Shown in pieces: positions 25,510 through 27,836 of a DNA stretch of 64,000 nt. Where the stretch lies: assembly GCF_000284015.1 (NCBI RefSeq), contig NC_016943.1:225541-289540 (forward strand), read 5' to 3'. The stretch's first letter is position 1, and the number at the start of each line of letters is the position of its first letter. The notes beneath the pieces were generated by a model. That model saw nothing but the letters and a program-made list of their open reading frames with translations, made no database searches and was not told where the DNA came from. The position numbers and the translations under genes were made by a program. This stretch comes from Blastococcus saxobsidens DD2. GTDB lineage: Bacteria; Actinomycetota; Actinomycetes; Mycobacteriales; Geodermatophilaceae.

Positions 25510-25569
25510 GGCATAGGAGGCTATGCCTACGTTCTGGGGCGCCGAACCATAGGCATAGCCTCCTATGCC
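25510..25569. repeat. 60-bp palindromic element, copy 1: perfect 20-bp inverted repeats with a 20-bp spacer
   Basis: GGCATAGGAGGCTATGCCTA, 20 nt, TAGGCATAGCCTCCTATGCC. Each arm is itself a 7-bp palindrome around a 4-nt centre. Lies between the MarR stop (25501) and the groES-like stop (25581). Confidence 0.7.
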
Positions 25570-25579
25570 CGGGGGGTTC

Positions 25580-25894
25580 TCAGAGGTAGAGGCCGGTCGA
25601 TTCCTCGATGCGCTCGGCGGCGACGGCGTGCACGTCGCGCTCGCGCAGGATGATCAGGTCCTCGCCGTGCACCTCGACCTCGTGCTGGTCCTCGGGGGAG
25701 AAGAGCACCTGGTCGCCGACCTTCACCTGACGGACGCCGGCGCCGATCCCGCGGGCCTCGCCCCACACCAGCCGCTTGGCCACCTGGGCGGTCGCCGGGA
25801 TGAGGATGCCGCCGGTGGACCGGCGGTCGCCGTCCTCCTTGCGGAGCGCGACCAGGATGCGGTCGTGCAGCATCTTGATCGGCAGCTTGCCGAC
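25580..25894 (-). CDS. GroES/Cpn10-family co-chaperonin-like protein (no adjacent groEL)
   Basis: KMLHDRILV ... GGILIP ... VKVGDQVLF ... DLIILRERDVHAV matches the Cpn10 fold pattern. GTG start inferred. Confidence 0.55.
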   Translation of the reverse strand, partial: VGKLPIKMLHDRILVALRKEDGDRRSTGGILIPATAQVAKRLVWGEARGIGAGVRQVKVGDQVLFSPEDQHEVEVHGEDLIILRERDVHAVAAERIEESTGLYL

Positions 25895-25965
25895 GGCGCT
25901 GTTCTCGGGCACGTCCTCGCACGCTACCCGCCGCCCGGAGGGGCGTTCCCGGCCGTCAGCGCCGC

Positions 25966-26313
25966 TCAACCCCAGCCGAGCTCGTGCAGGCGCTCCTCCT
26001 CGATGCCGAAGTGGTGCGCGATCTCGTGCACGACGGTGATCGTGACCTCCTCGACGACGTCGTCCTCGGTCTCGCAGATGTCGCAGATGGCCTCGCGGTA
26101 GATCATGATCCGGTCGGGCAGCGTGCCGCCGTAGTCCCAGCCGCGCTCGGTCAGCGCGTACCCCTCGTAGACCCCGAGGAGCTCGGGCTCGTCGGGGTTG
26201 CGGTCCTCCACCAGGACGACGACGTTGTCGAGCAGCGCCATCAGCTCGGCCGGCACCTCGTCGAGCGCGTCGGCGACGAGCGCCTCGAACACCGGTAGCG
26301 GGAGCGCCTTCAC
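25966..26313 (-). CDS. zincin-like metallopeptidase family protein (DUF1025-like)
   Basis: HEIAHHFG zinc-binding motif in a ~115-aa protein. GTG start overlaps the guaB1-like stop (GTGA). Confidence 0.6.
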
Positions 26314-27740
26314 CAGGACGTCGGCAGCGGCCGGCCCTCCTCGTAGCCGGCCGAGCTCTGCACCCCCAGCACCGCCCGCTCGTGCAGCTCGTCGACGGTG
26401 CGCGCGCCCGCGTAGGTGCACGAGGACCGTACGCCGGCCACGATCTGGTCGATCAGGTCCTCGACACCCGGCCGGGCCGGGTCCAGGTACATGCGGGACG
26501 ACGAGATGCCCTCCTCGAACAGCCCCGCCCGCGCCCGCTCGAACCCGGTCTGGGTCGCCGTCCGGGCCTTGACCGCGCGGGCGGAGGCCATGCCGAAGGA
26601 CTCCTTGTAGAGCCGGCCGCCGTCGTCGTGCACGTCGCCGGCCGACTCGTAGGTGCCGGCGAACCAGGAGCCGACCATCACGTTGGCCGCGCCGGCGGCC
26701 AGGGCGAGCGCGATGTCGCGCGGATGCCGGACGCCGCCGTCTGCCCACACGTGCTTGCCCAGCGAGCGGGCCTCGGCCGCGCACTCCTCGACGGCGGAGA
26801 ACTGCGGCCGGCCGACGCCGGTCATCATCCGGGTGGTGCACATGGCGCCGGGCCCGACGCCGACCTTCACGACGTCGGCGCCGGCCTCGATCAGGTCGCG
26901 GGTGCCCTGCGCCGTCACCACGTTGCCGGCCACCACCGAAGCGGCCCCGGCCACCGAGCGCACCGCGCGCAGCGCCTCGATCGCCTTCTCCTGGTGCCCG
27001 TGCGCGGTGTCGACCACGAGCACGTCCACGCCCGCGGCCAGCAGGGCGCCGGCCTTGCCCGCGACGTCGCCGTTGATGCCGACGGCGGCAGAGGTGAGCA
27101 GGTGGCCCTCGGCGTTCACGGCCGGCGTGTACAGCGACGAGCGCAGCGCGCCCTTGCGGGTGATGACGCCGACCAGCCGGTCGCCCTGCACCACCGGGGC
27201 GGCGCTGACCCGCTCGTCGGAGAGCACGTCGAAGATCTTGGTGAGGTCGGTGCCGGCCGGGATGGTGAGCGGCTCACGGGTCATGACCTCGGACAGCTGG
27301 GTGAACCGGTCGACGCCCTGGCAGGCGCCGTCGGTGACCACGCCGACCGGGGAGCCGTCCTCGACCACCACGACGATCCCGTGCGCCCGCTTGGTCAGCA
27401 GCGACAGCGCCTCCCCCACGGTGGACGTGGGGGAGAGAGTGATCGGGGTGTCGTAGACCGGGTGCCGGGTCTTGATCCAGGACACGACCTCGGCGACGAC
27501 GTCGACCGGGATGTCCTGCGGCAGCACGGCGAGGCCACCGCGGCGGGCCACGGTCTCGGCCATGCGCCGGCCGGAGATGGCCGTCATGTTCGCGACGACG
27601 ATCGGGATGGTCGTGCCGACGCGGTCCGGCGTGGTCAGGTCCACCTCGAGTCGCGACCCGACCGTCGAGTGCGCCGGCACCATGAAGACGTCGGAGTAGG
27701 TCAGGTCGTGGGCCGGGCGGTCATTCCCGATGAAGCGCAT
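26310..27740 (-). CDS. IMP dehydrogenase / GMP reductase family protein with CBS pair (GuaB1-like)
   Basis: TIM-barrel IMPDH fold with the catalytic loop [20 protein letters not shown] and a CBS domain. About 476 aa. Confidence 0.8.
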
Positions 27741-27776
27741 AGGTGCAGTGTCCCTGACGCATCCCACCGCCCGGTG

Positions 27777-27836
27777 GGCATAGGAAGCTATGCCTACGGA
27801 TCGGGGCCCAATCCCATAGGCATAGCTTCCTATGCC
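27777..27836. repeat. 60-bp palindromic element, copy 2
   Basis: GGCATAGGAAGCTATGCCTA, 20 nt, TAGGCATAGCTTCCTATGCC. Same architecture as copy 1 with a one-base centre difference (GAAG vs GAGG). Lies in the divergent region between guaB1-like (-) and serS (+). Confidence 0.7.

Follow-up and report, generated by a model that had tools for sequence, protein, structure and literature searches.

We analysed a window of 64 kb (the whole stretch of DNA considered here) from Blastococcus saxobsidens DD2 (NC_016943.1, positions 225,541 to 289,540), in which three minus-strand genes, for a Cpn10 (GroES)-like protein, a Zincin_1 protein and a GuaB1-family enzyme, lie between a MarR-family regulator gene and serS (Table 1). 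A preliminary description of this DNA had reported two copies of a 60-bp inverted repeat bracketing the three-gene block, the first in a convergent and the second in a divergent intergenic region. We found its coordinates for both copies to be exact, and the positions of the genes agree with it: copy 1 lies 8 nt past the MarR stop codon and 10 nt short of the stop codon of the Cpn10-like gene (minus strand), and copy 2 is separated by 36 nt from the start codon of guaB1 (ATG at 27740, minus strand) and by 45 nt from that of serS (GTG at 27882). Both are members of a lineage-specific family of 59–60-bp extragenic hairpin repeats of the Geodermatophilaceae that is low in copy number. Copies of this family are dispersed and come and go at orthologous sites, and in four genomes from three genera they are physically associated with a gene encoding a DUF559 protein.

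In each element of the window a spacer of 20 nt separates a 20-nt arm from its exact reverse complement; in copy 1 the arm GGCATAGGAGGCTATGCCTA is followed by the spacer and by TAGGCATAGCCTCCTATGCC. In copy 2 the G at arm position 10 is replaced by A, and the corresponding C of the partner arm by T. A search with the 18-mer core of the arm located the arms of copy 1 (25510–25527 and 25552–25569) and those of copy 2 (27777–27794 and 27819–27836) and no other matches, with 0.01 matches expected by chance (100 shuffles); in both copies the partner arm matched the first arm on the opposite strand with 0 mismatches. Over their 60 nt the copies are 82% identical. Between the spacers 11 of 20 positions agree, as had been reported, and in both copies spacer positions 2–5 pair with positions 15–18 despite three differences (GTTC/GAAC vs GGAT/ATCC). 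Computed folding energies of the two elements were −52 to −62.5 kcal/mol for RNA (z −7.0 to −9.4) and −26 to −34 kcal/mol for DNA (z −6.0 to −8.7). With 57–60% GC, against 74% in the genome, the elements are conspicuously AT-rich.

Neither a relaxed pattern nor the covariance model of the family (R1, see below) detected further copies within the 64-kb window; the model scored copy 1 at 77 bits (E 7e-21) and copy 2 at 72 bits (E 2e-19). In a search of 24500–29000 against Rfam only chance-level matches were obtained, none to a known RNA family. A scan with consensus promoters and terminators gave nothing at either copy; the stems are AT-rich for this genome, and no canonical intrinsic terminator (a GC-rich hairpin with a T/U tract behind it) was found at either of them. 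The arms of copy 2 contain outward-facing TAGCTT hexamers, which may act as −10 elements.

Table 1. Repeat copies, genes and a putative operator in the part of the window around the two hairpin elements
Feature	Position	Strand	Remarks
Hairpin repeat, copy 1	25510..25569		'G-type' termini GGCATAGGAGGC / GCCTCCTATGCC; stem reaches into the flanks, roughly 25501–25578
Hairpin repeat, copy 2	27777..27836		'A-type' termini GGCATAGGAAGC / GCTTCCTATGCC; guaB1/serS divergent spacer
MarR-family regulator gene	24908..25501	+	Longest open reading frame; true start probably near 25020
Palindrome ATCTCGAACATCGAGAT	24978..24994		MarR–MMPL divergent region; unrelated to the repeat
Cpn10 (GroES)-like gene	25580..25969	-	Longest open reading frame; 109–117 aa in relatives
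Zincin_1 (PF06262) gene	about 25966..26313	-	~115 aa judged from relatives; overlaps the guaB1 stop by 4 nt
GuaB1-family inosine monophosphate dehydrogenase/GMP-reductase gene	26310..27740	-	100% identical to B. saxobsidens P0001
serS	27882..29183	+	GTG start

Scanning a genome collection with the pattern GGCATAGGNNGCTATGCC we obtained at least 120 matching stretches, mostly chance singletons in unrelated phyla; a pattern made of the terminal 12-mers (GGCATAGGARGC...GCYTCCTATGCC) would be both more specific and more sensitive. The family as we see it comprises ~20 copies at ~15–20 unrelated intergenic loci in Blastococcus, Geodermatophilus, Trujillonella and Modestobacter. B. saxobsidens has at least the two copies of the window, and the counts for relatives are likewise lower bounds: at least four loci, distributed over three contigs, in Blastococcus sp. 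VKM Ac-2987, at least four loci in Geodermatophilus sp. YIM 151500, and at least one copy each in B. capsensis, B. xanthinilyticus and Blastococcus sp. MG754426. Viral contigs and plasmids (the latter searched at both DNA and protein level) contained no copy. In metagenomes the two-arm pattern matched three contigs; two of them are high-GC contigs carrying family-type copies (L125 and L126), and the third (L124) has 37% GC.

The genes next to the copies are unrelated to each other: branched-chain amino-acid permease and RNase D; HlyIII and FAD monooxygenase; glgC; M23 peptidase and HpcH aldolase; map and infA; msrA and an alpha/beta hydrolase; a recN-like gene and Exo_endo_phos; UDG; NlpC/P60-VanY; and corA. 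What most of these places have in common is a stop codon within 25 nt of the start or the end of the copy, often at a convergent junction; copy 2 of the window, standing in a divergent region, is an exception to this placement at gene 3′-ends. The preliminary description had foreseen that many genome copies confined to unrelated convergent junctions would favour a generic terminator or a repeat resembling repetitive extragenic palindromes (REPs); the unrelated junctions that we obtained, mostly convergent ones or gene 3′-ends, favour the REP-like repeat. Besides inverted doublets, the family forms tandem direct arrays with a 42-bp period, of three, four and five units (L071, L038 and L090, respectively); in doublets and arrays alike the starts of successive arms or units are 41–44 bp apart, mostly 42. 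Since the spacers are homologous between unrelated loci, whole units are related by descent.

Several single copies deserve a separate mention. A direct doublet was found (L011, 1687–1746) on a 3.6-kb contig with 69% GC binned as 'uncultured Dehalococcoidia'; either the contig belongs to Geodermatophilaceae and was mis-binned, or the repeat family may extend beyond this lineage. In a metagenome variant (L126, 1729–1788) the arms are fully palindromic (GGCATAGGTACCTATGCC, centre GTAC), so that units are identical in either orientation. Two short assembly contigs start or end 1–3 nt from a repeat (position 2 of L125; 3491–3549 of the 3552 nt of L133), which suggests that assemblers break at the palindromes, so that draft and metagenome assemblies may contain too few of the copies. 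Also, in three cases the gene upstream of a copy ends at the TAG of the repeat arm (GGCATAG), namely MarR in B. montanus (L002, 9591–9597), another gene in B. xanthinilyticus (L105, ~3362–3368) and the DUF559 gene in Trujillonella (L134); insertions of the repeat can thus remodel protein C-termini.

For the analysis of conservation we aligned 20 doublets and built the covariance model R1 from this alignment. The canonical unit is a doublet of 59–60 bp with arm starts 41–42 bp apart and the consensus (CCA)GGCATAGGAAGCTATGCC-TACGGTTTCGGGGCCCGAAnCCGTA-GGCATAGCTTCCTATGCC(TGG). Its constant parts are the ends, a pair of inverted 12-mers, GGCATAGGA(A/G)GC ... GC(T/C)TCCTATGCC; the interior varies and remains self-complementary. 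These 12-nt termini are the same in Blastococcus, Geodermatophilus and Trujillonella, except for the A/G site and occasional changes of 1–2 nt, and in Modestobacter they take the variant form GGCACAGGAACC, with arms of the GGCACAGGA type. The sequence GTAG is present at the inner foot of the arm in a few copies only, others having ATAG, GCAG or GCAT.

The long hairpin is supported by covariation: 82% of the cells of the alignment are paired, and 18 of the 31 pairs have changed on both sides. None of 500 shuffles reached the observed value, and sliding the partner by 1–3 columns reduced pairing to 30–42%. The covariation extends 2–3 nt beyond the conserved core, so the flanks of a copy are complementary to each other, which suggests that insertion may take place in the centre of short palindromes. 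The structured RNA that had been suggested for the window is only partly supported, by the covariation of the long hairpin, as a match to a known RNA family is lacking in Rfam. The two short hairpins, expected from the internally palindromic arms, fared differently at the two levels; the arms of the window copies do have this symmetry, but across the 20 doublets the intra-arm mini-hairpins showed no covariation. In several copies the inner half of the arm reads CTCTCCC, CAATCCC or CTTTCCC, which is unpaired within the arm and compensated in the partner arm.

Comparison of the locus between relatives shows how patchy the repeats are. The order serS / guaB1 – zincin – cpn10 is kept in all seven syntenic relatives (Blastococcus spp., Modestobacter italicus and M. 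versicolor), most of which have neither repeat. The three-gene block is thus conserved regardless of the repeats, and these are not conserved parts of the promoters at the locus. The serS/guaB1 and Cpn10/MarR intergenic regions could not be aligned among the eight genomes, and a repeat is present in three of the eight only; the former spacer measures 68 to 332 bp and the latter junction 29 bp to 2.4 kb, with a MerR gene replacing MarR in Modestobacter. Beside MarR the repeat is missing from four of the six genomes that have this gene. Among the relatives B. montanus is the only one with a MarR-adjacent copy, which stays by MarR despite 2.3 kb of extra DNA before cpn10; the only one with a copy in the serS/guaB1 spacer is M. 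italicus, where a variant, GGCACAGGAACCTCTGCACC...GGTGCACAGGCTCCTGTGCC, is again situated in the divergent promoter region.

Both spacers have also received other DNA. A gene of 618 aa with SLFN/AlbA_2, HATPase_c_4 and DUF5635 domains stands between serS and guaB1 in B. montanus (L002, 2995–4851) and in Blastococcus sp. DSM 46786 (L128, 2996–4852), exactly in the spacer that holds copy 2 in the window, and the additional 2.3 kb between cpn10 and MarR of B. montanus includes a DUF1963 gene. Judged from these sequences, the two spacers look like insertion hot spots. Given a dispersed and patchy family, we regard the window copies as ordinary insertions into two hypervariable spacers, neither operators nor borders of the block.

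The association with a DUF559 gene was seen in Geodermatophilus sp. YIM 151500, where a gene of the DUF559/MTES_1575 type (306 aa) is enclosed by two clusters of repeats 1.1 kb apart. On the metagenome contig L125 a homologue with 64% identity lies 10 nt from a repeat; the repeat on this contig is downstream of the gene. The gene is single-copy and is found in the conserved order corA – DUF559 – rsmI in Geodermatophilaceae, with identities of 63–89%. Three further genomes, Blastococcus sp. HT6-30, Blastococcus sp. URHD0036 and Trujillonella endophytica, were picked by means of the protein alone, so that their choice was blind to the repeats; in all three a full doublet was observed on each side of the gene. 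Thus, with Geodermatophilus sp. YIM 151500, the DUF559 gene has repeats both before and after it in four genomes belonging to three genera, i.e. in every relative whose locus was readable. The upstream copy directly follows the corA stop codon, and the downstream copy occupies the convergent DUF559/rsmI junction. When the corA–DUF559 spacers were aligned, the two terminal 12-mers were the only runs of invariant columns.

The N-terminus of the DUF559 protein is an AbiEi-like DNA-binding domain (PADLOC, E 4.5e-18), and its C-terminus a DUF559/Vsr-like nuclease domain (Pfam; PDB 3HRL, E 0.009), with acidic and histidine residues invariant in 21 orthologues; the orthologue of B. saxobsidens is P0251, and D233, E244 and D246 are among the invariant residues. 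A tblastn search for a Y1-type transposase gave no credible match in the DNA of the loci read, the E. coli RayT query being approximate and the test accordingly weak. We note in addition a sequence TCCACAG(A/G)T, which occurs ~55 nt upstream of the DUF559 start at all five loci (L131 3945, L132 3946, L134 3946, L090 4797 and near the end of L125) and is, besides the termini of the repeat, the only conserved stretch of the corA–DUF559 spacer; the promoter of the DUF559 gene or a second protein site may lie here.

The physical association is an observation; from it we infer a functional link. We hold it probable that this low-copy family of hairpin repeats behaves like REPINs (REP doublets forming hairpins), the inverted doublet that forms the hairpin being the replicating unit, and that the cognate protein is the single-copy, vertically inherited fusion of an AbiEi winged helix-turn-helix (wHTH) with a DUF559 nuclease (Vsr-like, PD-(D/E)xK). 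What the nuclease recognises would presumably be the terminal 12-mers, the hairpin or cruciform, or both, and it presumably nicks or copies the element. The stronger proposal, that the Geodermatophilaceae possess a partnership of the kind known for REPINs and RAYTs (REP-associated tyrosine transposases), though built on a different enzyme, so that the AbiEi-DUF559 nuclease would recognise, maintain or disperse the 60-bp repeats, is tentative, and plausible rather than probable. For the window, the hairpin of copy 1 (−60 kcal/mol as RNA), at the convergent junction of MarR and Cpn10, would probably mark transcript ends in both directions or stabilise transcripts, and copy 2, between the promoters of guaB1 and serS, is probably tolerated rather than required.

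REPINs and their RAYT transposases were described in Pseudomonas and enterobacteria (PMC3116915, PMC3337134, PMC5581495). The likeness lies in short inverted units which with their spacer form a hairpin, in the extragenic position, in compensated changes of the arms and in tandem clusters, as well as in a single-copy, vertically inherited nuclease gene which is itself flanked by the repeats. There are, however, clear differences. The flanked gene encodes the AbiEi-like wHTH and DUF559 domains and not an HUH tyrosine transposase of the IS200/IS605 type; a genome apparently holds units to tens of copies rather than hundreds; the element is shorter (60 bp) and the host is an actinobacterium; and the constant 5′ GTAG/CGTC tag is wanting, some copies only having GTAG. 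Because the type of transposase and the tag both differ, we describe the family as REPIN-like in its working and not as a member of this class.

For the REPs and bacterial interspersed mosaic elements (BIMEs) of E. coli and for REPs tagged by GTAG/CGTC, roles in transcript termination and mRNA stabilisation were proposed (PMC3733652). Like these, the present elements are small palindromes outside genes that stand at gene 3′-ends, their orientations are mixed and they may be clustered; unlike them, they have 12-nt terminal inverted repeats and a long hairpin instead of a tagged imperfect palindrome of 20–40 nt, and they are far less abundant.

A repeat resembling miniature inverted-repeat transposable elements (MITEs) had been among the options offered for the window, and of these it came nearest to the evidence. 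Terminal inverted repeats, a short non-coding interior, intergenic dispersal and hairpin potential are shared with MITEs such as Correia, ERIC and those derived from insertion sequences. In contrast to MITEs, no direct target-site duplication is visible here, the flanks being complementary to each other instead; neither a transposase gene nor a parent insertion sequence with these ends was found at any locus read; and what flanks the associated gene on each side is a complete doublet instead of a single end. In the papers searched we found no account of this repeat, of REPs or REPINs in Geodermatophilaceae, of REPIN/RAYT systems in Actinobacteria or of an association of DUF559 with repeats. 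The confirmed part of our results is therefore a new family of a known kind of element, and the nuclease partnership, if functional, would be a new variation on the REPIN/RAYT theme.

Several observations speak against a REPIN-like system with its own nuclease. Copy number appears low, with at least four loci in Blastococcus sp. VKM Ac-2987 to be compared with tens to hundreds of copies for classical REPINs, and model R1, when run over 257 kb of family DNA, found nothing beyond the copies already located by pattern. The flanking of the nuclease gene was read in relatives, P0251 of B. saxobsidens being known from the protein alone. Moreover, the four flanked loci are orthologous and thus do not represent four independent events; a single pair of insertions in an ancestor, retained for some other reason, could account for all four, e.g. 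as terminators for corA and for the convergent DUF559/rsmI pair. The symmetry of the palindrome could stem from templated repair and not from selection. Orthologous spacers are too diverged to align, and neither a pair of filled and empty sites, nor a target duplication, nor a transposition intermediate could be defined. Finally, if a genome holds only ~10 copies, two copies only 2.2 kb apart would be unexpected (0.03 such pairs by a rough estimate), and the pair in the window may owe its existence to local hopping or to some local role.

The alternative that survives best is that the hairpins are selected two-way transcript-end or RNA-stabilising structures, which ordinary recombination has copied without the help of a protein of their own, and that the two copies beside the DUF559 gene are an inherited accident. 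The position of most copies within 25 nt of stop codons, frequently at convergent junctions, fits well with this explanation, as do the high stability of the RNA hairpins and the placement of the copies flanking DUF559, after the corA stop and in a convergent junction. We nevertheless consider it unlikely. A T-tract is absent, and the consensus scan recovered no canonical terminator at either window copy; the elements are AT-rich, unlike the GC-rich stems typical of terminators; 12 terminal bases remain constant over three genera while the interior changes; and both copy 2 and the M. italicus copy are in a divergent promoter region. The earlier argument that a plain terminator cannot explain both window copies was a fair one, given the position of copy 2.

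It is also conceivable, with a still lower probability, that the terminal 12-mers are phased protein-binding sites which organise or regulate DNA, i.e. a set of operators rather than a mobile repeat, a candidate for the protein being the AbiEi-like domain of the DUF559 protein as repressor or nucleoid factor. The regular spacing of 41–44 bp, mostly 42 (about four helical turns), in inverted doublets and direct arrays would suit such sites, and so would invariant 12-mers around variable interiors and a copy upstream of the DUF559 gene. AbiEi proteins of type IV toxin–antitoxin systems bind paired inverted repeats near their own gene for autoregulation, which counts in favour of this explanation, as the flanked protein has an AbiEi-like N-terminal domain. 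Here, though, there is no AbiEii nucleotidyltransferase partner, the domain is fused to a nuclease and the repeats are dispersed at gene 3′-ends, most of them with no obvious operator target. In addition, the spacers are homologous between loci and covary so as to keep the hairpin, neither of which is needed by a model of protein sites alone, and presence at orthologous sites is patchy.

The preliminary description had proposed operator sites of a dimeric regulator, possibly the neighbouring MarR, and also cassette borders; that the copies serve MarR or some other local regulator, or are recombination borders of a Cpn10-like/zincin/guaB1 cassette, is very improbable, even though the two copies bracket exactly three genes, one of them abuts the MarR gene and its counterpart in B. 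montanus has remained there with 2.3 kb separating MarR from Cpn10, and a distance of 2.2 kb between two copies would be improbable if there were only ~10 per genome, since the block with serS is syntenic in relatives mostly devoid of repeats and the MarR promoter has a conserved palindrome of its own, to which one may add the ~15 unrelated loci with the repeat, its patchiness at orthologous spacers and the absence of an integrase and of an attC-type core (GTTRRRY). This other palindrome, ATCTCGAACATCGAGAT, is kept in six genomes, with ATCTCTCGATnATCGAGAT-like forms in five other Blastococcus, and is the likely true operator of MarR. The start of the MarR gene is probably near 25020 since relatives encode proteins of 155–161 aa. 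In the comparison of the block between relatives, proposed along with the cassette idea, the block was kept in all seven independently of the repeats.

Other types of elements were considered and rejected. The core of an integron attC site (GTTRRRY/RYYYAAC) is absent from the sequence, and the block is conserved, not variable. A CRISPR array does not fit with 3–5 units only, with spacers that are identical or related and with units whose orientation can flip; no cas-family domain was present among the flanking genes scanned. A heat-shock operator of the CIRCE/HAIR type for the Cpn10-like gene was dismissed because the element is at the 3′-end of this gene and the motif is unrelated. A T-box or another serS leader was dismissed as well, because a −10-like hexamer, TACGAT (27868–27873), stands 8 nt upstream of the serS GTG and is kept across genera (the window, L001, L003, L129 and L130); its position suggests a leaderless serS transcript with a promoter wholly downstream of copy 2.

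Elsewhere in the window we observed repeats of other kinds. Five copies of an 84-bp unit in near-perfect tandem (98% matches) occupy 14159–14579, preceded by a diverged sixth copy at 14075; as 84 is divisible by 3, the unit may encode a protein repeat of 28 aa. Diverged direct duplications (71–79% identity) are found at 15630–16012 and 17650–18032 and at 29923–30018 and 30747–30842; these are tandem paralogous genes, the second pair being two Hydrolase_3 genes of the HAD family downstream of serS.

For the annotation of the window our results remove a tempting but wrong regulatory story, as there is no MarR operator at the repeats and no three-gene cassette. It is mainly from Proteobacteria that palindromic repeats outside genes, served by a nuclease of their own, are well documented. 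If the partnership proposed here is true, it would give a first function to the very common and uncharacterised 'DUF559 domain-containing' proteins of actinobacteria, and systems of repeats with a domesticated nuclease would have evolved more than once. Should the association be functional, a 60-bp substrate and a protein of 307 aa would make a tractable model in which to address the role of AbiEi-DUF559 fusions, and in which to see how hairpin repeats of low copy number are maintained through vertical inheritance in an actinobacterium of high GC content.

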